Positions 2,417 to 37,783 of a stretch of DNA of 38,606 nucleotides are shown here, in pieces. A program made the translations under genes and the position numbers. Location: sequence record NZ_CP102943.1. One strand, written 5' to 3'. The stretch comes from a plasmid. Within the stretch, counting starts at the first letter, position 1. Every line of letters starts with the position of its first letter. Under the pieces are notes generated by a model, which saw only the letters and a program-made list of their open reading frames with translations, had not been told where the DNA came from and made no database searches.

Positions 2417-2435
2417 CCAATATGTACCATCTTGG
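2417..2435. promoter_or_regulatory. 19-bp palindromic operator-like motif copy a (CCAATATGTACCATCTTGG) upstream of virB2; GGTGTAGACT follows
   Basis: Inverted repeat CCAATAT/ATCTTGG around TACCAT; about 110 bp upstream of the virB2 ATG; same family as copies at 8004, 14944, 18169, 25917, 35055, 37261, 37765. Confidence 0.6.
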
Positions 2436-2542
2436 CAATTGAAGGTGTAGACTACAGGCATCGCGCGATGGGCAACCGGATAAGCCATATCCCACCATTG
2501 CGCGGTGCCAACCAACCGTAGTCACCCACACCGGAGATTTCC

Positions 2543-2878
2543 ATGTCTGCATCGTCGTCCACCACCCTGGCTACCCCGAGCAAGGCCAACGCCTTCATGC
2601 GGGCGTTGCCGTACTTCGCCCTGCTGGCGCTCCTGGCCCTGGTTGCCACCTTCGACGTGTCCGCCGCCGATGGCGGGCTGGAAAAGGTCAATGAAGGCGT
2701 CGAAAAGGTGAAGTCGGTCCTGCAACTGGTCGCCGCCGGCGTGGTGACCATTGCCCTGATGTTCGCCGGCTTCAAGATGGGCTTCCAGAAGAGCGGCCTG
2801 ATGGAAGTGATGCCGATCATCATCGGTGGCCTGCTCATCGGCGCCGCGTCCTACATCGCCAGCTTCCTGGTGGGCTAA
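2543..2878 (+). CDS. virB2: VirB2/TrbC-family T4SS pilin
   Basis: 111 aa with a signal-like N-terminus and two hydrophobic segments, typical of pilin. GGAG RBS. First gene of the T4SS block. Confidence 0.85.
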   Translation: MSASSSTTLATPSKANAFMRALPYFALLALLALVATFDVSAADGGLEKVNEGVEKVKSVLQLVAAGVVTIALMFAGFKMGFQKSGLMEVMPIIIGGLLIGAASYIASFLVG

Positions 2879-2884
2879 GCCGCC

Positions 2885-3220
2885 ATGGCGAGCGATCAAG
2901 ACGAAGCCAATACCTACCGGGGCGACCCGATCTTTAAGGGATGCACCCGTCCGGCCATGGTCCTGGGCGTGCCGCTGTTCCCGTTCTTCATCGTCAACTT
3001 CCTCGTACTGATGGTGGCGGTGTGGGTGTGGTTTGGTGCAATCGCGCTCGTCCCGGTGGCGATCATGGTCATGCGACAGATCACCAAGCATGACGATCAG
3101 CAGTTCCGCCTGCTCGGCCTAAAGCTGCTGTTCCGGTTGGGCTTCCTCAACCGGAACGGCCGCTTTTGGCGGGCGTCCACCTACTCGCCGATCAGCTTCA
3201 AGAAACGGAAACGCCAATGA
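2885..3220 (+). CDS. virB3: VirB3 T4SS inner-membrane protein
   Basis: 111 aa; conserved hydrophobic stretch PLFPFFIVNFLVLMVAVWV; overlaps the virB4 start (ATGA). Confidence 0.8.
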   Translation: MASDQDEANTYRGDPIFKGCTRPAMVLGVPLFPFFIVNFLVLMVAVWVWFGAIALVPVAIMVMRQITKHDDQQFRLLGLKLLFRLGFLNRNGRFWRASTYSPISFKKRKRQ

Positions 3221-5823
3221 GCGCGCATCCTGCGTATTTCGACCAAATCAACGGGGAGCGCTCTGTGGCTCCCTTCATTCCGTACCGTGCGCACGTCGAT
3301 GACCACACCATCAGCACCGAAGATGGCGACTACATGCGCATCTGGAAGGTGGCCGGGCTCGCCTTTGAAACCCAAGACCCGGAAGAGACGCTGCGGCGCA
3401 AGGAACAGTTGAACACCCTATGGCGGTCGATTGCCAGCGATGAGGTGGCTGTGTGGACCCATCTGGTTCGTCGGGCAACAACCGATGAACTCAATGGGCG
3501 CTTCCCCGATGCGTTCAGCCGGCGCCTCAACACTAAGTATGGCCGCTCATTCAGTGGCTACAAGATGATGGCGAATGAGTGGTATCTGACCGTCATCTAC
3601 CGCCCCAAGCGCCCCGGCGCAACGCTGCTCAAGGGGTTGGGTGGTGGCGGTCGTCGCAACCTCGCGGACCTGCTGGCCGCGCAGGAAGAGGCCATCGCCA
3701 AGCTCGATGAGATCGCCTTCAATGTCGAGGCCGGCATGCAGCGCTACGGTCTGGACGGCCGGACCGGCATTGAGCCGCTGGGCGTCTATGAGATCGAGAA
3801 CCTGCCGCCAGTGCCGGGCGACATGCGCGGCCCCCGCAAGAGTGGCAAGTGTTCTCAGGCGTTGGAGTTCTTGAACTTCTTGATTACCGGCGTGTGGCAG
3901 CGCGTGCGTCTGCCGGATGGGCCGCTCAACGAGTACCTGGGCAACGCCTGGGTGCATGTGGGGGGTGAAACCATCGAGATCCGCACTCCGGATCGGACCC
4001 GTTTTGCCCGATGCCTCGACTTCAAGGACTACGCCCCGTGGGTCGAGCCCGGCATCCTCAATACGCTGATGTATGCGGACATTGAGTTCGTACTGACCCA
4101 ATCCTACAGCTTCATGAGCAAGCGCGAGGCCCGCAAGTTTCTGGATCGGCAGGCCACGCGGTTGGCGAATGGCGGCGACGGCACGCCGCAGGAAGTCGCG
4201 CAGTTGGATAAGGCCATCGAACAGCTGATGAACGGTCAGTTCGCGATGGGCGAGTACCACTTCGGCCTGATGGTGTTTGGCGACTCTGCCAGGGCGGTCA
4301 AGGTCAATACCACTACGGCAATGAGCCAGCTTCAAGATGAGGGGTTCCTGGCCTCGCTGGTTACCACGGCCACTGATGCGGCGTTCTACGCGCAACTGCC
4401 GTGCAACTGGCGATTCAGGCCCCGAGTTGCCGGCATTTCGTCGCAGGCGTTCGCTTGCCTCTCGGGGTTCCACAACTTCCGAGCCGGCAAGCGCAACGGC
4501 AATCCCTGGGGGGAAGCGCTGGCGTTGCTCAAGTCGCCGTCAGGCCAGCCGGCCTATCTGAATTACCACTACGGCAAGGGCGATGAGGACAACTTCGCCA
4601 AGATGATGTTGGGCAACACCCGCATCATCGGTCAGTCGGGTGCCGGTAAGACGGTCTTGATGAACTTCCTGATGATGCAGGCCCGGAAGTACGAACTGGA
4701 CTCGCCCACCGGCATGTGTCAGGTGGTTCTCGACAAGGACCGGGGCGCAATGGCGGCGGTGCTGGCGGTCGGTGGCAAGTACCTCGCATTTCGTAACGGC
4801 GTCCCGACCGGGTGCCAGCCGTTCCAGATGGAGCCGACGCCAGCCAACATCGGCTTCTTGGAGAAGCTGGTGAAGGTGCTGGCGCACCGGGATGGCAAGC
4901 CGCTGACCACCGCCGATGAGGTCAAGATCTCCCGCGCGGTGAAGACGGTCATGCGGATGGAAAAGCCGTTGCGCCGCATCAGCACGGTTTTGCAGAACCT
5001 GCCCGAAGGCAATACCCGTGAGGACCGGGATGACAGTCTCGCCAAGCGGCTCGCGAAGTGGTGCGCTGATGACGGGCAGGGCCGTGTCGGGTCGCTGGCG
5101 TGGGTGCTGGACTGCGAAAGCGACGAGATCGATTTCAATACGCATACCGTCTATGGGTTCGATGGCACTGATTTCCTCGACAACGAGGAAATGAAAACGC
5201 CCATGTCCATGTACCTCCTGCACCGGATGGACGGCGCCATCGACGGCCGTCGCTTCGTGTACTACATGGATGAGATGTGGAAGTGGGTCGAGGACGGCTC
5301 TGACTCGGAGATCAACCCGTTCGCCGAGTTCGCCGGCAACAAGCAGTTGACCATCCGAAAGCTCAACGGCCTGGGCGTGTTTGCTACCCAGATGCCGAGC
5401 AGCCTGCTGCAATCGAAGATCGCCAGCCAGCTGGTGCAGCAGGTGGCAACTGAGATCTACCTGCCCAACCCGAAGGCCGATTACCGCGAGTACACCGAAG
5501 GTTTCAAGGTGACGGCACAGGAATTCAGGATCATCAAGAACCTCGATGAACTGAGCCGCATGTTCCTGGTCAAGCAGGGCGACAAGTCCATGCTCTGCAA
5601 GCTGGATCTCGGCAAGTTCAAGCCGCAAGGCGCGCGCGAAGACGAATGGGAGGATTTCGACGACGAACTGGCGATTTTGTCAGGCGACAGCAGCAACAAC
5701 GAACTGATTGAACTGGCCATTGCCACGGTGGGGCCCGACCCCGAAGTGTGGGAACCGTGGTTCCAGCAGCAGCGCAAGGCTCGTATTCAGCAATCGAAGG
5801 CCCGAAAGGAGGGCACCCCATGA
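3217..5823 (+). CDS. virB4: VirB4 T4SS ATPase
   Basis: Walker A GQSGAGKTV; about 868 aa; start MSAHPAYF at residue 18 of the listed ORF, overlapping the virB3 stop. Confidence 0.9.
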   Translation: MSAHPAYFDQINGERSVAPFIPYRAHVDDHTISTEDGDYMRIWKVAGLAFETQDPEETLRRKEQLNTLWRSIASDEVAVWTHLVRRATTDELNGRFPDAFSRRLNTKYGRSFSGYKMMANEWYLTVIYRPKRPGATLLKGLGGGGRRNLADLLAAQEEAIAKLDEIAFNVEAGMQRYGLDGRTGIEPLGVYEIENLPPVPGDMRGPRKSGKCSQALEFLNFLITGVWQRVRLPDGPLNEYLGNAWVHVGGETIEIRTPDRTRFARCLDFKDYAPWVEPGILNTLMYADIEFVLTQSYSFMSKREARKFLDRQATRLANGGDGTPQEVAQLDKAIEQLMNGQFAMGEYHFGLMVFGDSARAVKVNTTTAMSQLQDEGFLASLVTTATDAAFYAQLPCNWRFRPRVAGISSQAFACLSGFHNFRAGKRNGNPWGEALALLKSPSGQPAYLNYHYGKGDEDNFAKMMLGNTRIIGQSGAGKTVLMNFLMMQARKYELDSPTGMCQVVLDKDRGAMAAVLAVGGKYLAFRNGVPTGCQPFQMEPTPANIGFLEKLVKVLAHRDGKPLTTADEVKISRAVKTVMRMEKPLRRISTVLQNLPEGNTREDRDDSLAKRLAKWCADDGQGRVGSLAWVLDCESDEIDFNTHTVYGFDGTDFLDNEEMKTPMSMYLLHRMDGAIDGRRFVYYMDEMWKWVEDGSDSEINPFAEFAGNKQLTIRKLNGLGVFATQMPSSLLQSKIASQLVQQVATEIYLPNPKADYREYTEGFKVTAQEFRIIKNLDELSRMFLVKQGDKSMLCKLDLGKFKPQGAREDEWEDFDDELAILSGDSSNNELIELAIATVGPDPEVWEPWFQQQRKARIQQSKARKEGTP

Positions 5824-6557
5824 AGAAGCTCGTTACCGCAATCGTCCTGGGCGGCGCGTTCGCGCTGGCCATGGTCGCCGGCCCGGCGGCGGCGCAGATA
5901 CCGGTGACGGTCACCACGCAGGTGACCGATTCGCCGATGACCTTCGCCGAGTTCGCGGCCAACACGTCTCGCTGGGCCCAGCAGGTCGCGCAGATGAAGT
6001 CGCAGATCAGCCAGATGGAGAATCAATACAAGGCGGTCACCGGAAGCAGAAACATGGGTGACCTGTTCAACAATCCGGCGCTGCGTAGCTACCTTCCCAG
6101 CGACTGGCAGAAGGTCTACGACGCCACGCGTAACGGTGGCTACAGCGGCCTGAGCGGCCGCGCCTCCCAGCTCTACAAGGACAACAAGGTCTACGACCTG
6201 TGCGTGAGGTTCCAGCCGGGGGACGCACGCAAGGCGTGTGAGGCAGCATCGGTCAAGTCCTTCCAAGACAAGGCGTTCGCAATGGATGCCTACGAGTCGG
6301 CTTCCAGCCGCCTCGACCAGATCACCTCGCTGATGCAGTCGATCAACACCACGCAGGACCCGAAGGCCATCGCCGAGTTGCAAGGGCGGATCGCGGCAGA
6401 GCAAGCGATGATCGCCAACGAACAGACTAAACTCCAGCTGTACCAGATGGTCGCGCAAGCGCAGGACAAGGTGCAGGAACAGCGCGAGCGCGAACTGGCG
6501 GCCAAAGAACTGGCACGCCGGGGCCATTTGGATCTCAAGCCGCTCGAATTCAACTAA
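5820..6557 (+). CDS. virB5: VirB5-like minor pilus subunit
   Basis: Signal peptide MKKLVTAIVLGGAFALAMVAGPAAAQ; size and position match VirB5/TraC; AAGGAGGG RBS; ATGA overlap with the virB4 stop. Confidence 0.75.
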   Translation: MKKLVTAIVLGGAFALAMVAGPAAAQIPVTVTTQVTDSPMTFAEFAANTSRWAQQVAQMKSQISQMENQYKAVTGSRNMGDLFNNPALRSYLPSDWQKVYDATRNGGYSGLSGRASQLYKDNKVYDLCVRFQPGDARKACEAASVKSFQDKAFAMDAYESASSRLDQITSLMQSINTTQDPKAIAELQGRIAAEQAMIANEQTKLQLYQMVAQAQDKVQEQRERELAAKELARRGHLDLKPLEFN

Positions 6558-6568
6558 GGAGATCCACC

Positions 6569-6847
6569 ATGAAGCGTATCGCCCTCGTCTCTGCCCTGGC
6601 CGTCCTCGCTGGCTGCTCTCAGGCCCCGGCTCCGGTGGCTGAACCCGTGCAGACGGTGGAATGGTTCAAGGAACACGACGCGGAGCGTTCCGCTGCCCTG
6701 GACAAGTGCCGAGCCAACCCCGGTGAGTTGGCCGGCACCCCCAACTGCATCAACGCCGAAAAGGCCCAGCAGGAGAAAGACGTTGCCCGGCGCGGGCACC
6801 TCAAGCTGGATGCGGCTGACCTGAACAAGCCGACAAAGGGGACGTGA
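6569..6847 (+). CDS. Small lipoprotein between virB5 and virB6 (entry-exclusion Eex-like position)
   Basis: Lipobox LAGC; 92 aa; AAGGAG RBS; synteny with eex of pKM101-type operons. Confidence 0.6.
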   Translation: MKRIALVSALAVLAGCSQAPAPVAEPVQTVEWFKEHDAERSAALDKCRANPGELAGTPNCINAEKAQQEKDVARRGHLKLDAADLNKPTKGT

Positions 6848-7938
6848 TGGAATTCCAACTGGTCCAGTTCATTGGTGAGTCAATCACCAATGCCCTACAG
6901 GCATACGTCAGTGCGGTTTCCAGTGACGTTGCGCAGATGGTGGCCCCCGTGGTGGCTGGGGCCATCGGCCTCTACTACACGGTCATGGGGTTGATGATCG
7001 TGCTGGGCCGAGCGGAAGGAGCGCTCGGCAATCTGGTAATGAGCATCATCAAGTACGCGTTGATCCTGGCGTTTGCGCTGAACATGAGCAACTACAACAA
7101 CTTTGTAGTGCGCGGCATTCAGGGTATGGAAGTGGGCATGGCGAAGGCTTTCGCGGCCAACGATGGATCGGATGCCAAATCGGCGTATCAGACCATTGAT
7201 GAGTCGATTCAACAGGGCTTCGACTTGTCGGCGGTGCTTTACGAGCGTGGGGCCAATCGCAGCATCGCCCAGATCGTCCTGGGGCTCTCCGAGCTTGGAA
7301 TGTCGGTAGGGATCGCGCTCGCCACGGCGGTGATCGCGCTGCCGGCGGCAGCGATGGTGATTGCCGCCAAGGCAATCATCGTCCTCCTGTCGGCCATAGG
7401 GCCACTGTTCATCGCCTGCCTGATTACGCCGCAGACCAAGGGATTCTTTGACCGGTGGTTTGCGGCGGTGATGACGCGGGTGTTTCAGATCGCGCTGCTG
7501 TCTGCCGTGCTGGCCTTGGCGATGAAGATGTTTAGCTACGTCATCATGCAGATCGATGTGGAGTCACCCACGGTAAGCACCCATCTTGCGATGTGGACCC
7601 TGGTCGGCATCACGATAACCATGTCGGTGGTGCTGTATCAGATCTATTCGGTGGGCGCGGAGTTGGGTGGCGGCATGGCATCGGCTGCGATCACGTTCGG
7701 TGGGATGGCGGCGAAGGCCATAGGCTTCACCACAGGCGTGGGCAACACTGTCCGACAGGTAGTGAACCCCATGTCCACCCGCCGCGATCTGGAGTCCGGA
7801 ATGATGGTTACGGCCGGTCGGCTCAACCACCTCGCTGCCGGCAATACAGCGTGGAACCCGCGTTACATGCAGCACGTCATGGGCCAGTTCGGAAAGAACT
7901 GGGGACATGCGCGCGGCGGATCTGTCCGGGGGGGATGA
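6847..7938 (+). CDS. virB6: VirB6/TrbL polytopic membrane protein
   Basis: Multiple transmembrane segments; about 363 aa; follows the lipoprotein with a TGATG overlap. Confidence 0.8.
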   Translation: MEFQLVQFIGESITNALQAYVSAVSSDVAQMVAPVVAGAIGLYYTVMGLMIVLGRAEGALGNLVMSIIKYALILAFALNMSNYNNFVVRGIQGMEVGMAKAFAANDGSDAKSAYQTIDESIQQGFDLSAVLYERGANRSIAQIVLGLSELGMSVGIALATAVIALPAAAMVIAAKAIIVLLSAIGPLFIACLITPQTKGFFDRWFAAVMTRVFQIALLSAVLALAMKMFSYVIMQIDVESPTVSTHLAMWTLVGITITMSVVLYQIYSVGAELGGGMASAAITFGGMAAKAIGFTTGVGNTVRQVVNPMSTRRDLESGMMVTAGRLNHLAAGNTAWNPRYMQHVMGQFGKNWGHARGGSVRGG

Positions 7939-7960
7939 ACCCCGACGCCAACACTGCTCC

Positions 7961-7992
7961 AAAAGCCGCTGTCACAGGCGGCTTTTTTATTG
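7961..7992 (+). terminator. Rho-independent terminator after virB6
   Basis: GCCGCtgtcacagGCGGC stem followed by TTTTTTATTGG. Confidence 0.6.
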
Positions 7993-8003
7993 GTTTCCTT
8001 TAA

Positions 8004-8022
8004 CCAAGATGTACCATCTTGG
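8004..8022. promoter_or_regulatory. 19-bp operator-like motif copy b (CCAAGATGTACCATCTTGG) with downstream GGTGTAGAAT
   Basis: Palindrome AACCAAGATG/CATCTTGGTT, 54 bp upstream of virB7. Confidence 0.65.
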
Positions 8023-8075
8023 TTATGTAGGGTGTAGAATCTGGATGTGACATTCCATCATCCGAGGTTGCCAAT

Positions 8076-8246
8076 ATGCGACACCCCCTGCTAACCGTGA
8101 TGCTGCTCGCCCTGGGCGGGTGCGCGACCACGGCTCCCGTAGTTCCGACACTGGCGGGCAAACCCCGGCAGTCCATCAACGCCGAGCGCCCGGCGACGGT
8201 GCCTCTGCATGCGGCTGATGACGCGTCTTCGGAGGTGTTCAAGTGA
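8076..8246 (+). CDS. virB7: VirB7 lipoprotein (56 aa; below the size cutoff of the ORF track)
   Basis: MRHPLLTVMLLALGGCATTAP gives a LALGGC lipobox. GAGG RBS. Stop overlaps the virB8 GTG start (GTGA). Confidence 0.7.
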   Translation: MRHPLLTVMLLALGGCATTAPVVPTLAGKPRQSINAERPATVPLHAADDASSEVFK

Positions 8247-8956
8247 TCGGCGCCAAGGCCAAGAACGAGTCGCCGGCGAAGGGCGAGAACCCTCATGCCG
8301 ATGCGCGCACCTGGGAAGCAAAGCGGGTGCTTGCGGTGGAACGGTCGGAACGTCGGGCGTGGCTCACTGCCGGCGGATTGGGGGTTGCGGTGGTGTCGAT
8401 GGCGGTGGCCATCGCGGTCATGCTGCCGCTCAAGACCACCGAAGTGCGCGTGGTGCGGGTCGATCAGTCAACCGGCTACGTTGACTATCTGACCACGGCG
8501 ACGAGTACGCCGCGCGAGGTAGAAATGGTTCTGGATGACCATTTCCTTGATGGCTATGTGCGCTCTTACGAGAGCTACGACTGGTATGTGCTGCAACAGG
8601 ACTACGACAGGATCGGGCTCTACTCCTCGTCGTCCGTGGGCAGGGACTACGCCGCGAAGTTCAGCGGCAGCCAGGATCTGACCAAGGTCTACGGCAGCAA
8701 TTGGAAAGAAACGGTCGAGATTCTTTCCATATCGCGGTCGCCATCGAGCGACAGCATCGCCAACGTGCGATTCCGCAAGACCAAGAAGCGAGTGGATGAC
8801 CAAGGGCCGGGGGAATCCCGCGTATGGCTGGCCGTCATCGCCTTCACCAAGAAGCCCGACGAGAAGGCGCCGGAATCTATCCGCCGCCTCAATCCGCTGG
8901 GCTTCACCGTAACCAGCTACCGGGCCTACCCGGAAGCTGCCGGCGGTGCGAAATGA
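8243..8956 (+). CDS. virB8: VirB8 T4SS inner-membrane protein
   Basis: One transmembrane segment plus a periplasmic NTF2-like domain profile; GTG start with GGAGGTG RBS. Confidence 0.8.
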   Translation: MIGAKAKNESPAKGENPHADARTWEAKRVLAVERSERRAWLTAGGLGVAVVSMAVAIAVMLPLKTTEVRVVRVDQSTGYVDYLTTATSTPREVEMVLDDHFLDGYVRSYESYDWYVLQQDYDRIGLYSSSSVGRDYAAKFSGSQDLTKVYGSNWKETVEILSISRSPSSDSIANVRFRKTKKRVDDQGPGESRVWLAVIAFTKKPDEKAPESIRRLNPLGFTVTSYRAYPEAAGGAK

Positions 8957-9843
8957 GCCGGGGCCTGTTGCTGGCGGTCGCCCTGGCCGTGACCAGTCCG
9001 GTGGCTCAGGCGCTCGATGAGCCCACTTCCTCGCCATTCGACAACCGCATCCAGTACGTCAATTACAACGATGGTGATGTGGTCCTGGTACGGGCTGTCG
9101 CCGGTCTGGGCATGCGGATCGTGCTTCACCCCGGCGAGCGGATCATTGGCGTTGCCAGTGGCTTTTCGCAGGGCTGGGAGTTCAGCGATAAGGGGCACAT
9201 CCTGTACCTGAAACCGAAGTCCATCGGCGGCGGTGACAGCGGCCAGGAGGTAATGACTCCCGAGCCGGGGAAGTGGGACACCAACGTCATGGTGACCACC
9301 GATCAGCGCATGTACGACTTTGACTTGCGCCTGTTGCGTGGCGACAACTCGGGTGCACCGCCCAAGAGCCAGCCGGTGGCCTACCGGGTGCAGTTCCGCT
9401 ATCCCGCCGAGGCCAAGCAGCACGAAGTGGCTCAGGCGTCGAAGGAAATGGCACGTGCGCGGCTCGACACCCCACCCCGTCCCGTCAATTGGGACTACTC
9501 CATGCAGGTGGGCGATGCGTCCGAAGGCATCGCTCCGTCGATGGCGTATGACGACGGCCGGTTCACTTATCTGCGATTCCCCAACAACCGCGAGTTCCCA
9601 ACCGCCTTCCTCGTCGCCGGCGACGGGAGCGAGAGCATTGTGAATAGCCATATCGACCCGCGCATGCCGGACATGCTGGTGCTGCATCGGGTATCGCCGG
9701 CGCTGGTGCTGCGGCTCGGCAGCGCGGTAGTGGGCATCTACAACGACAGCTTTGACGCCGATGGCGTGCCGTCGCGCACGGGCACCACCGTGCCGAACGT
9801 TCGCCGTGTCCTCAAGGCAGCAGGGAGTTCCAACGATGAATAA
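8953..9843 (+). CDS. virB9: VirB9 outer-membrane core-complex protein
   Basis: Signal peptide MSRGLLLAVALAVTSPVAQA; ATGA overlap with virB8. Confidence 0.8.
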   Translation: MSRGLLLAVALAVTSPVAQALDEPTSSPFDNRIQYVNYNDGDVVLVRAVAGLGMRIVLHPGERIIGVASGFSQGWEFSDKGHILYLKPKSIGGGDSGQEVMTPEPGKWDTNVMVTTDQRMYDFDLRLLRGDNSGAPPKSQPVAYRVQFRYPAEAKQHEVAQASKEMARARLDTPPRPVNWDYSMQVGDASEGIAPSMAYDDGRFTYLRFPNNREFPTAFLVAGDGSESIVNSHIDPRMPDMLVLHRVSPALVLRLGSAVVGIYNDSFDADGVPSRTGTTVPNVRRVLKAAGSSNDE

Positions 9844-10996
9844 GGTGATGGACCAGACCATTCAGCAGCTGGACGACGATGACCGGGGCATGCCGGGCGT
9901 CAATGAGCGGAAAGGCAGGGGAACGGCAACAAAACTGCTGCTCGTTCTGGTGCCGCTGCTGGCCCTGCTTCTGCTGGCCCTGTGGGGTTACAAGATGCTC
10001 AACCCGTCCACTCCCAGCGCGGCGCCAAAAAAGGTAACGGACGCGCGGACCAGCACTGTCCCCAGCAGGACGTTCAAGTTCACGGATGCGCCGGCGGCGG
10101 ACGCACCGCCGATTCCTGGCCCGGATGCGGTGCCGGCAGTTGACCCTGCGGCACCGGTGCTGCCGGGTCAGGCCGAAGGCCCCATGGCCGCGACCGCGCA
10201 TGCGGACACGGCCAAGCCCGCCCGAAAGCTGGACAAGGCGGGCTCGGGCCTGATGGTAGTCAATGACACCTCGCCATCCGACGCGGGCCAGGGGCCAACG
10301 GGCGCTCCGGGGGCGGCTCAACAGCCTGGACTGGCCGGCGGCGAGAAGAGTGGCGGACCGCTCTCGGCGATGCTTACTGGCACCTACACGCCCGGTGCGC
10401 GGGCGGGCATGTTGCCGGATCGCACCTATCTGCTGACCAAGGGATCATTCATCGACTGTGGCATCCGCGGCCGAATCGACTCGACCGTACCCGGTGCAAT
10501 CGCCTGCACCGTGACCCGCGACATATACAGCGCCAACGGCAAGTTGGTGCTGGTAGAGCGCGGCTCGGTCGTAGAGGGCGAGTACCAAGCCAACATGCGT
10601 GCCGGTATGAATCGGATCTTCGTGTTGTGGACGCGGCTGACAACGCCCTCGGGTGTGTACGTGAACCTCGATTCTCCGGGGGCCGATCCGCTCGGGGGTG
10701 GTGGCCTGCCAGGGCACGTGAATAATCACTTCTGGAAGCGGTTCGGCGGCGCAATGATGCTGAGTGTGGTCGATGATCTTTCCAGCTGGGCCACCCGAAA
10801 CAATCGCAGCGGTGGCGGCAATCAGATCAGCTTCGGGTCCACCAGCGACGCGGCCAATGATATGGCGAGCGAAGCACTGCGAAGCACGATCAACATCCCG
10901 CCAACGCTCTACAAGAACCAAGGCGACCGGGTGGGCATCTACATCATGCGTGACCTTGATTTCTCGGGTGTGTACGCGATTCAGGCGGTGCAGTGA
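9836..10996 (+). CDS. virB10: VirB10/TrbI
   Basis: Cytoplasmic N-terminus, one transmembrane segment, a Pro-rich linker and a conserved C-terminal domain ending RDLDFSGVYAIQ. Confidence 0.8.
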   Translation: MNKVMDQTIQQLDDDDRGMPGVNERKGRGTATKLLLVLVPLLALLLLALWGYKMLNPSTPSAAPKKVTDARTSTVPSRTFKFTDAPAADAPPIPGPDAVPAVDPAAPVLPGQAEGPMAATAHADTAKPARKLDKAGSGLMVVNDTSPSDAGQGPTGAPGAAQQPGLAGGEKSGGPLSAMLTGTYTPGARAGMLPDRTYLLTKGSFIDCGIRGRIDSTVPGAIACTVTRDIYSANGKLVLVERGSVVEGEYQANMRAGMNRIFVLWTRLTTPSGVYVNLDSPGADPLGGGGLPGHVNNHFWKRFGGAMMLSVVDDLSSWATRNNRSGGGNQISFGSTSDAANDMASEALRSTINIPPTLYKNQGDRVGIYIMRDLDFSGVYAIQAVQ

Positions 10997-25661: not shown

Positions 25662-25704
25662 TAACGTTGTGCTCCAAACAGCTGTGCGACGGCCCAAAGG
25701 GGAG

Positions 25705-26357: not shown

Positions 26358-26601
26358 GGCTGCGGCTTCTTGCTCCGGCATGGCGCGCTGTCCACATATC
26401 CACGATCCGCGAAGGGGCTCTACGTGGCACCCGCAGCAGGGTTGTGGGTATGTGGGCAGTCGCGTGCTACTGCTGTTGCTCTCGTCCTGGGCTGCGGCTT
26501 CTTGCCTTGGCATGGCGCGCTGTCCACATATCCACGATCCGCGAAGGGGCTCTACGTGGCACCCGCAGCAGGATTGTGGGTATGTGGGCAGTCGCGTGCT
26601 T
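26358..26601. repeat. Two tandem copies of a roughly 131-bp repeat, each with an internal inverted repeat and DnaA-box-like sequences
   Basis: Copy 1 at about 26358-26470 and copy 2 at about 26489-26601, over 95% identical. Each unit has TGTCCACATATCCACGATCC and GTTGTGGGTATGTGGGCAGTC. Directly 3' of rep. Confidence 0.8.
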
Positions 26602-26605
26602 GCCA

Positions 26606-26637
26606 CGAAAAAGCCCGGCGCTGGGCCGGGCTTTTGT
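26606..26637. terminator. Bidirectional rho-independent terminator 3' of rep
   Basis: GAAAAAGCCCGGCgctggGCCGGGCTTTTGTG. Confidence 0.75.
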
Positions 26638-26657
26638 GCGTTCTGTTGGATAGTGGG

Positions 26658-27734
26658 TCAGAAAGGAAGTGCCCGCTGCGTAGGCAGCTTAGGTACGTGC
26701 GTGGGGCTGGGGTACAGGATCAAGCCGGTGTCGCAGGTTGATAGTTTCGCTTCGGTGTAGATGGTGGCCACGTGCTTGAGTTCGCGAAGGAAGGCTCGCT
26801 TAAAGTCGCGCACGCCTTGTTCGTTACGGGCGTAGCCTGCACCGAACTGTGCGGCCAGGGAGAACCACGGTACGACGGTTCGGCGCGACAGATAGCTCAT
26901 GCGATGCGTCAGCCACACATAAATATCCAGCGCCATTGGCGAGTGGCGGAGCGCCTTCATAGCCATCATGTTGACCGGGACGGGGTGGTCAATGCACTCA
27001 TTGAAGAACGGCTTGGACAATTCCAACGTCGAGCGCCATTGTCCAGCTTGCTCCTTGTTCTGTGGCTCCCACCAGTGGACCCCATCGGCCAGCTGCACGT
27101 TGCGCAACGCCCACTCATCGACACCCTGGTACTGGCACGTAATGATGGCGCTGAACAACGTCGTCATCGCGTGCTTCAGGCGCGTAATGTCGCCTCGCTT
27201 GCCGCCCGTGTTTTTCAACCCGAGTGCGCGCAGGTAATCGGCGAGTGTATCCCCTACGAACAACGTCGATTCCCTGGTACGAACTGCTTCGGAGCAAACC
27301 CACGTCAGCAGCAGGCGGGGCAGTGTGCCGTAAGGGAGGCCATCAGGGTGCGCCGTGAGCATGGTGAGGGTGAAGTCACCATTCTTGCGGACAAAACGGT
27401 ACTCATCGACAACCCGACGATGAGGCAGGGTGGCAATAGCGAGGGCTCTCGTCATGTAACCGATAGAGCCGGATGCCTTGGCATCGCTGGCCTCAATCGC
27501 GAGGTGCGCGCTGATGAGGTCTTTGACGCGGCTGGGAAGTTCCTCATACCGGTAGTCATAGACCGGGCGGAAAGCAACCTCCTTCGCACGCTTGCCGGCC
27601 GGCTGGATCTCGCCCTGTTCCGAGTCTGGGCCGCTCATGGCGCTCAGATCGACGGCTGTACGCCGGCGGCTAGTGGATGCGCCGGCCCGTTTACTGGCGG
27701 TTCGGCGCGGTGTGGTAGCATCGGTATCAGTCAT
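26658..27734 (-). CDS. repA: Plasmid replication initiator protein (RepA-type, RepA_C-like)
   Basis: PMALDIYVWLTHRMSYL...VPW..LAAQFGAGY matches the C-terminal signature of plasmid RepA initiators; ATG at 27734 (alternative TTG at 27749). Confidence 0.7.
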   Translation of the reverse strand: MTDTDATTPRRTASKRAGASTSRRRTAVDLSAMSGPDSEQGEIQPAGKRAKEVAFRPVYDYRYEELPSRVKDLISAHLAIEASDAKASGSIGYMTRALAIATLPHRRVVDEYRFVRKNGDFTLTMLTAHPDGLPYGTLPRLLLTWVCSEAVRTRESTLFVGDTLADYLRALGLKNTGGKRGDITRLKHAMTTLFSAIITCQYQGVDEWALRNVQLADGVHWWEPQNKEQAGQWRSTLELSKPFFNECIDHPVPVNMMAMKALRHSPMALDIYVWLTHRMSYLSRRTVVPWFSLAAQFGAGYARNEQGVRDFKRAFLRELKHVATIYTEAKLSTCDTGLILYPSPTHVPKLPTQRALPF

Positions 27735-27763
27735 CGTTGCCTGTCCCAAATTGGTAATGATGC

Positions 27764-27800
27764 AAAGCCGGCAGATTGCCCGATCTGTCGGCTTTTCTAT
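27764..27800. terminator. Hairpin terminator between the RHH gene and rep
   Basis: AAAGCCGGCAGATtgcccgATCTGTCGGCTTTTCTATTTC. Confidence 0.55.
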
Positions 27801-29941: not shown

Positions 29942-32866
29942 TCAAAGATCGATGCCGAAGCCGATGCCGGCGGAAGATTCGCCGCCGCTGATGGCACCGC
30001 CGAAGCTGAAAGATCCGCGGCCGATGGACTTCGACCAGCCAACGGAAAGAGCCCGCTGCCCGCCCGACCAGCCAATGCCGGCACCAACGCGGCCGAACTC
30101 GCTGCGAGATCCGCCGGCATTGGTAGCCATCTGCACCATGGCCGAGGTCATGGCTGACTGCCGATCAATGCGACGGTCCAACTGGCCGAACCGCATGTTC
30201 ACCTGACGGCTCATATCGTCCATGCCCCCCCACACATCAGCGATACGGCTGTCGGTATACGCCTTGGACTCCTTGAGCGTTTCCTGGGCCTTGGTGTCGG
30301 TGTAGGCGCGGCTCTCGCCAATGCCCTGGCGTACCTGATTGAGATTGGCGGCGTCAGTACCGTTGATGCCGGCAGCGAGGTTGGAAATGCGCGTCCCGCC
30401 GGGCCCTTCCAGCGTCAACGCGTCCTTGCTCGCGTCGTCGTAGATCACCGGACGGGTGATGGCCGGGCTCTGCTCAACGTCGCTGACGCGGCCTTCCAGC
30501 CCGGCCAGCTTGCCGTCGACGGCAGCGAACGCGTCGCCGACGTTGCCAAAGTCCACCGATCCGATCCGGTACTGCGGACCGCTGAAACCGCCGTTGTTCC
30601 AGCCAGCGCCAGCGCCCAGCGCACTGGTCAAGGCCGACAGCTGGGTGAAGTTGGTGGCATCGGTTGCATTGACGCCGGCGGCCACGCCAGTGATACGCGT
30701 GGGGGCTCCTGAGCGCTCCGCGTTGTAGGCGGTGCCGTCGAACAGCAGGGCGTCGCCGGCAACGCCGGCAAGCTCGTCCCGCACGGTGTCCAATTGGGAC
30801 TTGTTCACCGCGTCCAGGCTGTCCACACCATCGGCCACCCCTGAAATGCGAGTGGCGGCGCCGCCGCGCGTGGCGTTGTAGGTCGTCCCATCGAACAACA
30901 GAGCGTTCTCGCTTACCTTGCCCAAGTCGGTTGCCACCGCATCCAGCTGGCGCTTGTTGACCGCATCGGTGGCATCGATGCCATCGGCCAGATCCACCAC
31001 GCGGGCCCCCTTGGCGGCAATCGCGCCGTTGGGGCCAGTGAACTGCACCGCACGCGCATCGAGCGCGGCCAGATCCGCGCCCACGTGGTCAGCCGTCCGC
31101 TGCGCGGCCTGGGCCTGACCCTCCACACCATCGAGCTGACCACGGTTCACGGCGTCGCCGGCACCCACGCCATCAGCCACCCCTGAAATGCGCGTGGCAG
31201 CGCCCTCCCGAATGGCGTTGTAGGCCGTGCCGTCAAACTTGAGCGCGTCACCACCGATGACGCCAACCTCGCCAGCCAAGGCATCCAGCTGGCGCTTGTT
31301 CACGGCATCATTGGCATCGGTGGCATCAGCTACCCCGGCAATCCGGGTGGCATAACCATCGCGGCGCGCACTGAATGCCGCGCCGGTATAGCGCATTGCG
31401 GTATCGCGGATCTGGATGACCTCGCCCGTCAACTCGCCGTGTTGCTTCATGGTCACCGCATCGCTTGCGGCGACACCATCGGCAACATTGACGATGCGGC
31501 GCTTCACCTCGGCATTGCCCACGGACACGGTGTTGGCTTCGGTCGCGCGGCTTCCATTGCCGAGAGCCACGCTATCGGCCATGGCGTAGCTGCTGGCGCC
31601 GAAGGCGGAACCGCGTACATCGGCCTCGGCGGACCGGCCCACGGCCACAGCGAAGTCATCCGCCGCAGCCTCGCCGCCAATTGCGGTGGCATTGCCACGG
31701 GCGCGGGCGTTGTATCCCACGGCTGCGCCGCGAGAACCAGGTTCACCAGCCTCCATGGACACAGCACCCTGGCCGACTGCTACGTGGTTGGAGCCTGCCG
31801 TGGTGCCGTAGCCCAGCGCTACGGCGCCTTCTGGGCCAGCCGTGGCGGCTACGTCGCCGGCAGCACCTGGGGTAGCTACCGCATACCGGGCGATTCCGTC
31901 CGCCGTCGCCTGTGCAGCCACAGCCATCCGCCCCGACTGTGCCGCGAGGTCGCTAGCCCCCTTCGCGTCGGTCACTCCCTTGTTGGCGGTGAATTGGGCG
32001 TTTGCTGCCTCAGATCGCGCGGTATCCGCCGTGCCCTGGGCACTTCGGGCCAGCGTCCGGCCTTCATTGCCGACCTGTAGGGCCGTCGCCGCATCGGTTA
32101 CGCCCTTGTCGGCGGTCCACTTCGCGGTGTCTGCGGTGTTCTGCGCGCGGACGGCACGGTTCACCCCGTCCTGGGCAACAGTGGTCACGCTGTTGACCTG
32201 GTTGACGCTCGCCGCATCGTTGCCCGCGACGCCATCTGCAATGTTCGTCACACGACCGCCGACGCTCACCGCGTTTCGGTTGCCGTCGGTGTACTTCACC
32301 GCCAGTGGATCATTGCCACCAGCATTAGCCATTGCAGAGTCCAGCTGCCGCTTGTTCACCGCGTCCATAGGAGCCACGCCATCGGCGAGGTTAGATATCC
32401 TGCCGCCTCCGGAACCAGCGGCCATCGTGTAGCTCAGATCTAGGGTCTTGCCGCTTTCCATCGGGATTGAAGTCGGCGCATACGCGGCTTGCAGCTGTGT
32501 CGTCGGGTAGCCGTATTCGTCAACGCCATCAACGTAGTAATAGAAGACTTGGGACTGGGCATCGTCCATCTCCCACGTTTTGGTCTGGGTGTTGTAGAAG
32601 TTGTAAACATCCATCGCATCGCCCGATCCATCAGCGAACTCGGTAACACGCTGGGTGACAAAGGTTCCATCCGCGTACATCAGACCGTTGTGATAGCAGG
32701 TGCTTCCCCCACCGTCGCAAGGTGACTGTGGCCCTTGCAGGCCGGCATGCGCTGGTGCGGCAGCTGTCATCGCCATCACAAAGCCTGTTCCGCACGCCAC
32801 GGAGAGCAATGAAGCTGTGACGGATTGCGCAAGGCTGCGCCGTTTTGCGCTATTTCGCTTACCCAT
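29942..32866 (-). CDS. Trimeric autotransporter adhesin (YadA/XadA-like)
   Basis: Long signal peptide; repeated ADGV..TDAVNKRQLD neck/stalk motifs in at least 6 copies; Ala/Thr-rich coiled-coil stalk; C-terminal Gly-rich beta-barrel anchor. Confidence 0.85.
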   Translation of the reverse strand: MGKRNSAKRRSLAQSVTASLLSVACGTGFVMAMTAAAPAHAGLQGPQSPCDGGGSTCYHNGLMYADGTFVTQRVTEFADGSGDAMDVYNFYNTQTKTWEMDDAQSQVFYYYVDGVDEYGYPTTQLQAAYAPTSIPMESGKTLDLSYTMAAGSGGGRISNLADGVAPMDAVNKRQLDSAMANAGGNDPLAVKYTDGNRNAVSVGGRVTNIADGVAGNDAASVNQVNSVTTVAQDGVNRAVRAQNTADTAKWTADKGVTDAATALQVGNEGRTLARSAQGTADTARSEAANAQFTANKGVTDAKGASDLAAQSGRMAVAAQATADGIARYAVATPGAAGDVAATAGPEGAVALGYGTTAGSNHVAVGQGAVSMEAGEPGSRGAAVGYNARARGNATAIGGEAAADDFAVAVGRSAEADVRGSAFGASSYAMADSVALGNGSRATEANTVSVGNAEVKRRIVNVADGVAASDAVTMKQHGELTGEVIQIRDTAMRYTGAAFSARRDGYATRIAGVADATDANDAVNKRQLDALAGEVGVIGGDALKFDGTAYNAIREGAATRISGVADGVGAGDAVNRGQLDGVEGQAQAAQRTADHVGADLAALDARAVQFTGPNGAIAAKGARVVDLADGIDATDAVNKRQLDAVATDLGKVSENALLFDGTTYNATRGGAATRISGVADGVDSLDAVNKSQLDTVRDELAGVAGDALLFDGTAYNAERSGAPTRITGVAAGVNATDATNFTQLSALTSALGAGAGWNNGGFSGPQYRIGSVDFGNVGDAFAAVDGKLAGLEGRVSDVEQSPAITRPVIYDDASKDALTLEGPGGTRISNLAAGINGTDAANLNQVRQGIGESRAYTDTKAQETLKESKAYTDSRIADVWGGMDDMSRQVNMRFGQLDRRIDRQSAMTSAMVQMATNAGGSRSEFGRVGAGIGWSGGQRALSVGWSKSIGRGSFSFGGAISGGESSAGIGFGIDL

Positions 32867-32952: not shown

Positions 32953-32971
32953 CCAAGATGGTGCATATTGC
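32953..32971. promoter_or_regulatory. Degenerate operator-like motif copy h (CCAAGATGGTGCATATTGC)
   Basis: About 13 of 19 matches to the consensus; in the divergent promoter region between the adhesin and the TA pair. Confidence 0.3.
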
Positions 32972-35013: not shown

Positions 35014-35046
35014 TCTGTGCCTCCGTGTCTGCCAGTGCGGGTAATT

Positions 35047-35081
35047 CCGCACAACCAAAATATACCATCTTGGTTGTGCGG
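35047..35081. promoter_or_regulatory. Operator-like motif copy f inside an extended 12-bp-arm palindrome (CCGCACAACCAA-AATATACCATC-TTGGTTGTGCGG)
   Basis: Core CCAAAATATACCATCTTGG at 35055-35073; 42 bp upstream of the gene starting at 35013. Confidence 0.65.
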
Positions 35082-35118
35082 AATGCAATAAGTGTTTTAG
35101 GAATTGCCCGTTTTGTGG

Positions 35119-35691
35119 TCAGTGGTAGGACGTGTAGAGCATCGGGCGACCATCCCAGCGGTGCAGCCTCCTCCCCTTCCTGACGACAACTCCGGGCGCG
35201 CTCGTCCGGCAGGTGAACGGCTCCGCGTTTTGCAGGAAGGCGTCTTTGGCGGGGACCACGTAGCCGGACATGGCACACGGGCTTGGCCGGTCCGCCTGGG
35301 TGCTGGCGATGGCCCTGACTTCAACCGTTCGCGGCGAAACAACACGCACCACCTGGAAGAAATACACATTGGTCTGGTCGTAGCCGCTCGACTCGGCAAC
35401 CACGTCGCCAACGGCCAAGCCGTGAGCTGCTGCTGCTCGCGCAGTGCGGGCCGTCGCCTTGGCCGCTTCGCGGCGGGCCTGGGATTCGGCATAGGCGTGC
35501 AGGGCGCGCGCGAGTTCTTCTTCGCTGCCGCAACTGACGTGCAGTGCGGCGCGGGTCTGCCGCCCCTTGTAGACCATCAGGCCGTGCCGTCCTCGGCGAA
35601 TGGGGTAGATGTAGGCAACGATGCCGGCAGCGGGGAAAGTCTGCTGTGCGCTGTCGTCGGGGATATAGCGCTCTGGCTTGAAACGTTTCAT
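35119..35691 (-). CDS. Hypothetical protein
   Basis: 190 aa; GGAG RBS; no recognised motif. Confidence 0.5.
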   Translation of the reverse strand: MKRFKPERYIPDDSAQQTFPAAGIVAYIYPIRRGRHGLMVYKGRQTRAALHVSCGSEEELARALHAYAESQARREAAKATARTARAAAAHGLAVGDVVAESSGYDQTNVYFFQVVRVVSPRTVEVRAIASTQADRPSPCAMSGYVVPAKDAFLQNAEPFTCRTSAPGVVVRKGRRLHRWDGRPMLYTSYH

Positions 35692-36423: not shown

Positions 36424-37260
36424 GGTGACTTTCTCCGTGCTTCCTGTTGCGTGGTGAACATTGCTTCGCTGAGTGCCTTGCGCCGTATTGCCCGTAGGTC
36501 GGGCGGGACGGGCTGGGTGTGATGTGCAAGACAGGAAGCCGCAGCCGCGCCGCAGGCGTGGACCGGGTGAGTGGATTGAGCGCTTGCGCGTCACTTCGCA
36601 CCCAGCCCGGCTTGCCCTACCTTTAAGGGCAGGCGTAAGGCACTCGGCGAGTGTTCAGGTACGCGGTAGGGCGGAGAGGGTCACCGGAACCGAAATGCAG
36701 CAGCGACAGCTGCTGCCAGTGACGGCTTGCCGGCACCATCTGCGCCCGTAGGGCGCGCAATAGCGGGGTTGCCTGGGCCGTTGAAATCACGGCCGCGTCG
36801 CGGTCGGCGCTGTTGAATGGGGGGTGGGTAGTGGTGACAGGCCTGCGGCTGGCCAGGGGGCGTCGTGTCACCAAGACAGATTCAGCGTGAAGTGACCCGC
36901 TGTGGCGACATGTCTCGCAGCGGGCAGGGTGGGGGTGTCATCAGTCGGCGCCAGGAAGCCTTACGCCGTGCCGCCGGCGATGGCCTTAACGGCGTTCATA
37001 AATTGGTGACGGGGAACGTGGTTAAGCGGTAGAATCGGTCGCCAATATTGGCTCTGTCGGCTGCTGCCGTTGGTCCGTTTTGCGTCAGGGAGTTCGACGC
37101 AAGACGTGCCCAGCTTTACCGAAAGGGATTGAAGCCCGTAGGGCCGAAACCGGCAGATGCCGGGTTCGGTTCACGAAAGCCCGGCCCCGCCGGTAGGCGG
37201 GGAGAGCCAGCATATCGAGCGTTGCGAAGGTCTGGATGCCGTAACAACCAAGTTCATCTA

Positions 37261-37279
37261 CCAAAACGCTACATTTTGG
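37261..37279. promoter_or_regulatory. Operator-like motif copy i (CCAAAACGCTACATTTTGG)
   Basis: 22 bp upstream of the ATG at 37301. Confidence 0.5.
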
Positions 37280-37300
37280 TAGTAACATAGGACTATTGAA

Positions 37301-37762
37301 ATGACCCAAGACGACAAATTCACAATGCGACCGCCTTGCAGCGCTTCAAACTCGATCTTGGAACCAGACCTCGAACTGGCCGCGAAGCACAACATCATCG
37401 ATCAGTTGGAAGTGCTGGAAACGGATGATGGGTTCTACCTGCTGGCGACGTTCGCCGATCATGGCGAAGTCCTGAAACAGAGTCGTGGGCAGGGTCTTCC
37501 TGAGTGGTTCTACATCCTGGCCCAACTGCTGAGTGAGCCCAACAAGCAGTGGTATCTGACGACGCGCCGGGATCGCGACAGCCCGCGTCTGTTCAAGGAT
37601 CTCAAGCGGCTCAATGAACACCTGAAAGACAAGTACCCGCTCAACAGTTTCACGCTGCACAGGCACGTCAAGATCGAGGGCGCCGGCCCTGAGAAGAAGC
37701 CGCAGACGCGCGGCCGGCGACCGAAAGACAAAATCGAAGCCGCCAAACATATGCAGGCGTAA
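37301..37762 (+). CDS. Hypothetical basic protein upstream of virB1 (candidate DNA-binding regulator)
   Basis: 153 aa with lower GC than its surroundings. The C-terminal KKPQTRGRRPKDKIEAAKH tail is strongly basic. It has its own operator-like site. Confidence 0.5.
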   Translation: MTQDDKFTMRPPCSASNSILEPDLELAAKHNIIDQLEVLETDDGFYLLATFADHGEVLKQSRGQGLPEWFYILAQLLSEPNKQWYLTTRRDRDSPRLFKDLKRLNEHLKDKYPLNSFTLHRHVKIEGAGPEKKPQTRGRRPKDKIEAAKHMQA

Positions 37763-37764
37763 TT

Positions 37765-37783
37765 ACCAAGATATGCTAATCTG
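37765..37783. promoter_or_regulatory. Operator-like motif copy g (CCAAGATATGCTAATCTGG)
   Basis: 31 bp upstream of virB1. Confidence 0.45.

Follow-up and report, generated by a model that had tools for sequence, protein, structure and literature searches.

A conserved intergenic dyad at transfer-module promoters of a distant PromA-type plasmid and a candidate family of cognate regulators

The plasmid record NZ_CP102943.1 (38,606 nucleotides, analyzed over its whole length and called the window below) contains nine copies of an inverted repeat, CCAA-N11-TTGG in its exact form, located ahead of the operons for a type IV secretion system (T4SS) and for other functions of transfer and establishment. 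This dyad is enriched, restricted to intergenic DNA, conserved in position among related plasmids, and overlaps conserved −10 hexamers, and it co-occurs with and adjoins genes of one protein family, represented in the window by the open reading frame (ORF) at 37301 to 37762 (plus strand, 153 aa; ORF37301). From these patterns we infer that a protein binds the dyad, which protein this is, and that its effect is negative. The dyad would be the operator of a plasmid-encoded dimeric transcription regulator of the PromA-like transfer module, and the ORF37301 product is the most likely binder. Binding of the dimer would block RNA polymerase and thereby hold the T4SS, primase-like, adhesin, and establishment-type operons at a low steady state, and negative autoregulation of the regulator would permit a burst of expression upon entry into a new cell. 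On the sequence evidence, we hold repression of the transfer module by ORF37301 via the dyad to be moderately probable.

A discrete dyad confined to intergenic DNA

Searching the window for CCAA-N11-TTGG recovered seven exact copies, at positions 2417, 8004, 14944, 18169, 25917, 35055, and 37261, compared to 0.62 expected; none of 100 dinucleotide-preserving shuffles reached this number. A tighter dyad consensus with up to three mismatches gave eight matches (0.02 expected), and a first-order Markov null model of the intergenic DNA alone predicted 0.13 exact dyads, with a maximum of 2 in 2,000 runs. Likewise, when all spaced 4- and 5-mer palindromes were enumerated without bias, CCAA-N11-TTGG was among the most overrepresented in the window and was the only one of the top palindromes with AT-containing arms. 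A position weight matrix (PWM) trained on the seven exact copies ranked two degenerate copies next, at 32953 (score, 24.9) and 37766 (score, 16.3), while among 200 mononucleotide shuffles the 95th percentile was 14.9 and the highest score 20.3. Eight of the nine dyads score above the best shuffle, and the exception, at 37766, is backed by orthologous sites in five related plasmids (L001 to L005; see below). The nine palindromes listed in the initial annotation of this DNA were thereby recovered by shuffle, Markov, and PWM tests, with one position corrected from 37765 to 37766.

According to a gene map guided by GC content at third codon positions, coding DNA makes up 33.4 kb (86.5%) of the window, and the intergenic fraction is 0.135. 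All nine dyads are intergenic (P = 1.5e-8 given this fraction), and coding DNA holds no copy. Each dyad is separated by 21 to 108 nt from the start codon of the gene that follows, in agreement with the earlier description of sites lying 5′ of transcription units. The initial annotation had named an equal frequency of the motif in coding regions or shuffled sequence as the result that would speak against it. With 0 copies in coding DNA and 0.62 expected by chance, the motif is not equally frequent in either, and the observation is therefore confirmed.

The dyad is an inverted repeat of 19 to 21 bp, with aCCAAnAT(g) arms around a 3-nt center. The family consensus from 57 nonredundant external sites is aCCAAaATa-nnn-tATtTTGGt, in which information reaches nearly 2 bits in the arms, is still 0.6 bit at the ±1 flanks (which lie outside the PWM), and falls to about 0 at the second flanking base and beyond. 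As information drops to about zero beyond the 21-mer, the element is best described as a discrete 21-bp dyad and not as mere conserved promoter DNA. The half-site centers are approximately 12 bp apart, which places both half-sites on one face of the helix. The CCAA and TTGG arms of the consensus proposed earlier were retained in this analysis, while its constant core, TACCAT, turned out to be one of several centers.

Conservation among related plasmids

The nearest annotated relatives of the window are PromA and Xanthomonas plasmids, with approximately 45% VirB8 identity. Its gene order is collinear with that of pSFA231 (L001), a second PromA plasmid (L002), and a Xanthomonas campestris plasmid (L003); the comparison also included plasmids of Burkholderia pseudomallei (L004), Pseudomonas syringae (L005), and Acinetobacter (L006; 36% GC), as well as the IncU plasmid RA3 (L008). 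The window-trained PWM detected strong copies of the dyad in L001, L002, L003, L004, and L005 and two copies in L006, and palindrome enumeration on L003 again returned CCAA-N11-TTGG, with 8 copies compared to 0.65 expected. The shared positions are those at virB2, virB7/virB8, OmpA/traQ, virB1, and the small ORF preceding virB1, and the window sites at 2417, 8004, 18169, and 37766 have orthologues in L001 to L007. As judged from sequence comparison, the dyad is conserved across the whole PromA/IncU/LowGC-type transfer-module family and is not peculiar to the window plasmid.

Promoter architecture and mode of action

Upstream regions were compared in gene orientation across the relatives. At the virB2 and virB7 promoters (virB2p and virB7p), a near-consensus −10 hexamer is located exactly 12 nt past TTGG in every plasmid aligned, and no −35 hexamer was recognizable at either promoter. 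The virB2p hexamer is TATAAT in five relatives, and its putative counterpart in the window is TAGACT (2448 to 2453, plus strand). At virB7p, the putative −10 is TAGAAT (8035 to 8040, plus strand), part of a TAnAAT-CTGG block found at the same offset in L001 to L005. Given a −10 element 12 nt downstream, the dyad would span approximately −43 to −25 at these two promoters, covering the −35 region.

A different arrangement was observed at other promoters. A perfect TATAAT occupies dyad positions 9 to 14 at the OmpA/traQ promoter, both in the window (18177 to 18182) and in L001, L003, L004, and L005, the four relatives with an orthologous site. The dyad at 37766, ahead of virB1, has a −10-like hexamer at positions 12 to 17, starting at 37777, as do its counterparts in L001 to L005 (TATTAT or TATATT), which accounts for a right arm of ATGG or CTGG at this promoter. 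The dyads at 14944, 25917, and 35055 each hold a TATTAT, TATATA, or TATATT hexamer; that at 14944 has TATTAT at 14954 to 14959 and orthologous sites in L004 (22756) and L005 (24882). At the promoter of ORF37301 itself, TAnAAT starts 3 nt after an extended form of the dyad, which lies over the spacer. In the window, this extended form (CTACCAAAA...TTTTGGTAG) is located at 37258 to 37282, and the −10-like TAACAT begins at 37283, 3 nt after the dyad; in L001 to L005, the homologous gene likewise follows an orthologous dyad, with TAnAAT at an equal offset. The earlier suggestion that the −10 element lies inside the dyad is consistent with the OmpA/traQ and virB1 promoters and with the copies at 14944, 25917, and 35055, but not with virB2p and virB7p, where it follows 12 nt downstream. 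A strict sigma-70 scanner returned no promoter in the first 20 kb of the window, and the promoter positions given here consequently rest on phylogenetic footprinting.

Depending on the promoter, the dyad is positioned over the −35 region, the spacer, or the −10 hexamer. This is the pattern of a steric repressor and is hard to square with an activator; the dyad thus fits an operator at which a repressor would act on core promoters. It is improbable that the dyad is an activator site at which a bound protein recruits RNA polymerase to virB2p and virB7p, two promoters with a good −10 but no recognizable −35. The dyad does take the place of the −35 element there, at a fixed and conserved distance of 12 nt from the −10, and fixed geometry is typical of activators. 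However, overlap with the −10 (OmpA, virB1, 14944, 25917, and 35055) or with the spacer (ORF37301) is incompatible with activation, and a center at −34 corresponds to neither a class I nor a class II activator position. Furthermore, the dissected network of plasmid R388 is purely repressive, and the tra operons of RA3 are reported to be strongly repressed.

We give very little credence to a purely structural role of the palindromes, as hairpin terminators, cruciforms, or recombination sites. The copy at 35055 is part of a perfect 39-bp palindrome directly after a gene, and the copy at 8004 follows a terminator, which would fit such a role. However, the arms of most copies are only 7 to 8 bp long and AT rich and would form weak hairpins. 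Conservation is also sequence specific, with the arms remaining CCAA/TTGG and no compensatory changes seen, the distances from the −10 hexamers are fixed, and the window gave no Rfam match.

ORF37301 as the candidate binder

ORF37301 matches no Pfam or NCBIfam entry. It belongs to a family of 90- to 160-aa proteins with 166 representatives at 50% clustering among 1.84 billion proteins. The members to which a source gives a name are all called “hypothetical protein,” except for one generic Joint Genome Institute (JGI) label. A 99%-identical protein (P0001) is present in NCBI on a 3.9-kb contig. Members share the conserved core ...WYLTTRRxRxxPRLFKDLxRLN..., an acidic N terminus, and a basic core and tail. 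The AlphaFold2 (AF2) model of ORF37301 (predicted local distance difference test [pLDDT] score, 76) has no known DNA-binding fold and no helix-turn-helix (HTH), and a profile search of PDB sequences found nothing.

Homologues of ORF37301 (35 to 64% identity) are encoded by all motif-bearing plasmids, including L006. In the window and in L001 to L005, one dyad is located directly upstream and one directly downstream of the gene, and in L006 a strong dyad (15066) lies directly downstream. Among 16 independent loci from species-representative genomes, a dyad occurs no more than about 90 bp upstream of the family gene in approximately 15. A second dyad just after the gene is present where the downstream region is intact, and most of the loci that are long enough have a further dyad approximately 3.26 kb downstream, at virB2p.

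The most discriminating evidence on the binder comes from remote family members in other contexts. At locus L034, the family protein (P0120, 26% identity) heads a type IV pilus operon (TcpQ/secretin/T2SSE; 5001 to 10420); ACCAAAAYAGGGTGTTTTGGT occurs twice in the gap separating the family gene from the operon and a third time at a distance of 1.4 kb, and no window protein other than ORF37301 has a homologue in this 10-kb locus. At L030 (186 to 2895), the family gene precedes a gene for a TonB-dependent receptor, and ACCAAAATAGATCATTTTGGT is found 70 bp upstream of the family gene. These contexts indicate that the family is not restricted to conjugation modules of mating pair formation (Mpf) type T. 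Variants with CCAA-N10-TTGG are present beside the family gene at L026, L033, and L035, and at L026 and L035 also at the next promoter downstream. At L028, which encodes an RA3-like protein with PRGW, GTCAAAACAGCACACTTTGCG is located just before the start codon and is close to a site of RA3 (27769). Arms of the type TCAAA..TTTG(A/C) accompany the RA3-like proteins (PRxW subgroup) in both RA3 and L028.

RA3 itself has a variant dyad, ATCAAA-N9-TTTGAT, at the virB7 position (22243), where weaker copies flank it at a spacing of 22 bp. The variant also occurs as a pair in 22-bp phase (27747 and 27769) ahead of a family-homologue ORF and virB2. The two tandem arrays (22221 to 22285, with three copies at virB7p, two of them weak, and 27747 to 27789, with two copies ahead of the ORF) keep an exact 22-bp phasing, which suggests cooperative binding on one face of the DNA. 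BLAST found no homologue of ORF37301 in RA3, while a hidden Markov model of the family matched the RA3 ORF at 27375 to 27728 (E = 2.6e-4; RKKPRVWSSLDRLAKHI aligned with RekPRlFkDLkRLndHL), which is situated directly behind the variant-dyad pair. A published RA3 study describes an experimentally known internal promoter, orf23p, strong repression of the tra operons, and a product of the transfer module that corepresses the tra operon and is listed there as unidentified (PMC8124265). By our own gene numbering, orf23p appears to be the promoter upstream of the lipoprotein gene at the virB7 position, and the ORF at 27375 to 27728 may be the transfer-module regulator that has been called unidentified since 2013.

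Three candidates for the cognate protein had been named at the outset. The ORF37301 protein fared best, KfrA is absent from most relatives, and the KorA-like protein (24031 to 24429, minus strand; the first gene of korA-incC-korB) is missing from L006 and RA3 and has no site of its own. It is unlikely that this KorA-like HTH protein binds the dyad, as KorA binds its operators in IncP-1 plasmids. It is the only clear HTH-type candidate, with subthreshold Pfam matches to KORA (16.4 bits; cutoff, 26.7 bits) and HTH_28 and a faint match to the KORA domain of PDB 7bbq, which we take to be the structure of the KorA/ArdK HTH of R388; it is also basic (isoelectric point, 9.8) and has homologues in L001 to L005. 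However, L006 and RA3 keep the dyad or its variant with no homologue of this protein, a strong dyad upstream of korA/ssb was seen in none of the plasmids examined, which means that the autoregulation typical of KorA is missing, and the dyads at L034 and L030 occur with no KorA-like gene in view.

Other candidates were rejected. A KfrA homologue was found only in L001. MobC and the resolvase occur in all relatives as well, but neither the mobC promoter nor the res region carries a dyad. KorC, KorA, and the orf33 to orf36 products of RA3 (including an annotated HTH protein) and the HTH protein of L006 have no homologues in the window or in the other motif-bearing plasmids. KorB is present everywhere but probably has its own palindrome, TTAGTCATGACTAA, at 21466 to 21479 in the korB-mobC gap, a parS-like position outside the dyad regulon. 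A copy with one mismatch is located inside korB (22452 to 22465), this two-site arrangement recurs in L003 and L004, and 14 copies are found at non-Mpf promoters of L006. The window KorB has ParB_N, KorB, and KorB_C domains, and TTAGTCATGACTAA probably serves this lineage as the operator of KorB/ParB or as parS. A distinct palindrome at a parS-like position indicates that the CCAA dyad is not the KorB site.

Several observations weigh against ORF37301 as the repressor. The adjacency of dyad and gene is partly a matter of synteny: the gene is usually the first of the Mpf operon, and that operon would bear a dyad whichever protein binds it. Two remote loci, L027 and L032, have no clear dyad, and in this sampling the N10 and N11 spacing classes are not cleanly sorted by protein clade. 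The variant dyads of RA3 are located at virB2p and virB7p and not at orf33p, where the corepressor reportedly acts and where no variant dyad was found. The −10 assignments are predictions from consensus and conservation. Finally, identity among the proteins falls to 26 to 35% although the dyad hardly varies, as would fit a conserved host factor.

Synteny, the unequal conservation of dyad and protein, the spacing classes, and orf33p together leave room for a host factor or another plasmid protein. We nevertheless regard it as rather improbable that the dyad is bound by a conserved proteobacterial host factor, with ORF37301 as a T4SS accessory protein or coregulator that makes no DNA contact. 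Near invariance of the dyad across plasmids of very different GC contents and hosts, next to a strongly divergent protein with no recognizable DNA-binding fold, would be in line with such a factor. However, multicopy dyads occur specifically where a family member is encoded, including contexts other than T4SS, a variant arm and a variant protein subgroup go together in both RA3 and L028, and the RA3 literature points to a factor encoded in the transfer module. To our knowledge, the dyad also fits none of the consensus sequences of LexA, Fur, CRP, FNR, IHF, Fis, and PdhR, which counts against this alternative.

Overall, the sequence-based data favor the ORF37301 family as the candidate cognate regulator. 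Extended to the family as a whole and to its modeled structure, the proposal would be that of a new class of alpha/beta repressors, of neither HTH nor ribbon-helix-helix type, that reads the 21-bp dyad and is the master switch for the conjugative T4SS operons of PromA, IncU, LowGC-type, Xanthomonas, and Burkholderia plasmids and for at least some mobile-element type IV pilus operons; we consider the case for and against this wider claim to be evenly balanced.

Dyads of the window and the units that follow them

Two exact dyads precede the main T4SS operons. Dyad 1 (CCAATATGTACCATCTTGG; 2417 to 2435), with orthologues in L001 to L005, is located at the promoter of the virB2-virB6 operon. Dyad 2 (CCAAGATGTACCATCTTGG; 8004 to 8022), at the promoter of the virB7-virD4 operon, has orthologues in L001 to L006 and a variant counterpart in RA3; directly before it, a terminator scan detected an intrinsic terminator after virB6 (7961 to 7986, plus strand; a 10-bp stem followed by a T-run), and hairpins homologous to it are present in the relatives. 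Two further exact matches follow in the same half of the window. Dyad 3 (CCAATATGTGTATTATTGG; 14944 to 14962) is upstream of a KfrB-domain/LPD7 (primase-like) operon that starts at 15034, and dyad 4 (CCAAGACGTATAATCTTGG; 18169 to 18187) is at the promoter of the OmpA-like/TrbM operon, whose first ATG is at 18217.

Dyad 5 (CCAATATATACCATATTGG; 25917 to 25935) precedes a minus-strand unit consisting of a gene for a 46-aa membrane peptide and the gene at 25227 to 25745; the layout of site, small ORF, and homologous gene recurs in L001 (38908), L003 (1032), and L004 (38307). The degenerate copy CCAAGATGGTGCATATTGC (32953 to 32971; PWM score, 24.9) lies between a YadA-like adhesin gene (minus strand, start at 32866) and parDE, and it may serve either or both of these units. 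The adhesin (29942 to 32866) is a 974-aa YadA-type trimeric autotransporter that apparently shares dyad control with the T4SS genes. An adhesin of the Xanthomonas plasmid L003 is 49% identical, and its gene, too, has a dyad 54 nt upstream. The YadA-type protein may be an adhesin for mating aggregation or host attachment that is coregulated with transfer.

Dyad 6 (CCAAAATATACCATCTTGG; 35055 to 35073; exact match) is upstream, on the minus strand, of a three-gene operon starting at 35013. It lies inside the perfect 39-bp palindrome (35045 to 35083; TTCCGCACAA-dyad-TTGTGCGGAA) that directly follows the gene at 35119 to 35691, and this palindrome might also act as a terminator hairpin or represent a longer binding site. 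Dyad 7 (CCAAAACGCTACATTTTGG; 37261 to 37279) is immediately upstream of ORF37301 and perhaps also serves the divergent operon at 36874 to 35119. The degenerate copy CCAAGATATGCTAATCTGG (37766 to 37784; PWM score, 16.3) is located between ORF37301 and virB1, with virB1-topA as the following unit.

The PWM scan detected no above-noise dyad at the korA-incC-korB, repA, or mobC-relaxase promoters. The predicted regulon consists of transfer and establishment-type genes, with replication, partition, and the relaxase operon outside it, and the plasmid-wide regulon proposed in the initial annotation was therefore too broad.

Upstream of dyad 7, a GC-rich, hairpin-bearing segment was observed at 37120 to 37260 (GAAGCCCGTAGGGCCGAAACCGG...CACGAAAGCCCGG...). 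It is retained upstream of the ORF37301 homologue in L001 to L005, L011, L021, and L030, with a DNA fold z-score of −1.9, and an Rfam search of the segment gave no match. Possible roles are those of a single-strand initiation or promoter element in a leading region and of a small RNA.

The replicon and its other repeat elements

Pfam annotation of the window revealed a complete conjugative plasmid backbone. TopA is encoded at 10 to 2391, and the VirB2-VirB11/VirD4 cluster was assigned from ORF positions and tblastn searches against annotated relatives. Further products include KfrB-domain and LPD7 proteins, OmpA, TrbM, a relaxase, MobC, DUF192, KorB, IncC, the KorA-like protein, RepA (26658 to 27749, minus strand), KfrA, a resolvase, the YadA-type adhesin, ParDE, and DUF6573, and an SLT/VirB1 protein is encoded at the window end. 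The arrangement matches the PromA backbone (small ORF-virB1-topA-virB2..virB11-virD4-primase-OmpA-TrbM; mobC-relaxase; korA-incC-korB; a RepA_C-type RepA). Identity to described PromA proteins is only about 35 to 70%, and a megablast search of PLSDB gave no match to the window, which together indicate a distant PromA lineage; by sequence, the window is a distant PromA-type broad-host-range conjugative plasmid. At its start 9 nt precede topA and at its end 1 nt follows virB1, and these genes are neighbors in all relatives. With every backbone module present, the window is probably the whole replicon, a circle of approximately 38.6 kb linearized between virB1 and topA.

Downstream of repA, a 132-bp tandem repeat (26358 to 26600; 1.8 copies, 96% identical) contains TATCCAC, which is similar to a DnaA box. 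This repeat is probably part of the origin of vegetative replication (oriV), and the ORF called at 26073 to 26741 is likely spurious.

A second intergenic repeat element consists of TGGTGAC-N27/28-GTCACCA pairs at 18090 to 18145 and 36832 to 36885 and also at 17821, each followed by AGACAGATTCAGCG(C/T). Six copies of AAGACAG.TTCAGCGC (12135, 17737, 17861, 17883, 18006, and 18130) were also found, most of them within a repeat region at 17650 to 18170. The ORFs called at 17375 and 17658 have no homologue in any relative, and this stretch is therefore probably a noncoding repeat region. In L001 to L005, such heptamer pairs are grouped in large clusters between genes, and L006 has none; the element may be a site for a further regulator, for example KorA.

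Relation to known plasmid control networks

Regulons in which one repressor acts on multiple operators are a well-known feature of broad-host-range plasmids, and the system described here is therefore of a known kind. What appears to be new is the dyad operator itself, its conservation over PromA, IncU, LowGC-type, and Xanthomonas plasmids, and its link to an unnamed protein family of noncanonical fold. A search of the literature, including the motif string, found no description of the dyad, although the original PromA and RA3 KorC papers may mention palindromes. PromA and IncU plasmids are among the most promiscuous carriers of catabolic and resistance genes, and the analysis supplies for them an operator (aCCAAaAT-N5-ATtTTGGt), a map of the promoters that it would control, and a single candidate protein family. 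It also turns the missing transfer-module regulator of RA3 into a directly testable question. If the proposed role of ORF37301 is correct, its family would represent a new DNA-binding fold among bacterial repressors and a handle for derepressing or silencing transfer in PromA-like plasmids. It would also explain why the dyad is nearly frozen from Acinetobacter to Burkholderiales plasmids, and the dyad would be a cheap sequence marker for promoter annotation in such plasmids.

RA3 shares with the window a homologous PromA-type transfer module, a variant dyad, and a remote ORF37301 homologue. The two plasmids differ in the position of the family gene, which lies between topA and virB2 in RA3 and before virB1 in the window. 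The palindromes at the published KorC- and KorB-regulated promoters of RA3 were recovered (OC, TAGGCC-N5-GGCCTA, and OB, TTCGTA-N2-TACGAA); their sequences differ from the dyad and are absent from the window. Neither the window nor L001 to L007 encode a homologue of RA3 KorC, and the window has no OC-like TAGG(G/C)C-N5-G(C/G)CCTA sequence (17 bp).

In function, the closest system is that of KorA in R388. This Mpf-encoded protein is autoregulatory and represses PtrwH (virB7 type), PkorA (virB2 type), PkikA, and PkorB, within a network in which all regulators are repressors in negative feedback loops, strong promoters are kept under tight negative feedback, and expression overshoots after transfer (Fernandez-Lopez et al. 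2014, PMC3937220). ORF37301 is likewise Mpf encoded and has a site at its own promoter, with further sites at virB2- and virB7-type promoters, but this likeness is a functional analogy only. R388 KorA appears to be an HTH protein, and ORF37301 has no sequence or fold match to the KorA/ArdK HTH (PDB 7bbq/7bcb). In addition, a second regulator, ArdK, controls the establishment genes of R388, whereas one dyad covers both T4SS and establishment-type operons in the window.

The IncP-1 plasmids (RK2/RP4) resemble the window in having several palindromic operators on the core promoters of transfer and maintenance operons and a ParB-type KorB with its own palindrome. Transfer promoters of these plasmids are repressed at the −10 by TrbA, whose gene heads the Mpf (trb) operon. 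The earlier view that the operator is unrelated to the RP4 sites was upheld, as OA (GTTTAGCTAAAC; 12 bp) had no match in the window with up to two mismatches and OB (TTTAGCSGCTAAA) and OC-like sequences were absent from it. The window dyad is also longer (19 to 21 bp, compared to operators of 12 to 13 bp), its regulon leaves out the korA-incC-korB operon, and the candidate binder, ORF37301, is unrelated to KorA or TrbA. The suggested likeness to IncP global control is nonetheless borne out at the level of logic, since the comparative evidence fits the repressor networks of IncP and IncW plasmids. Overall, the window system works like the IncP-1, IncU, and IncW networks while standing outside their regulator and operator families.

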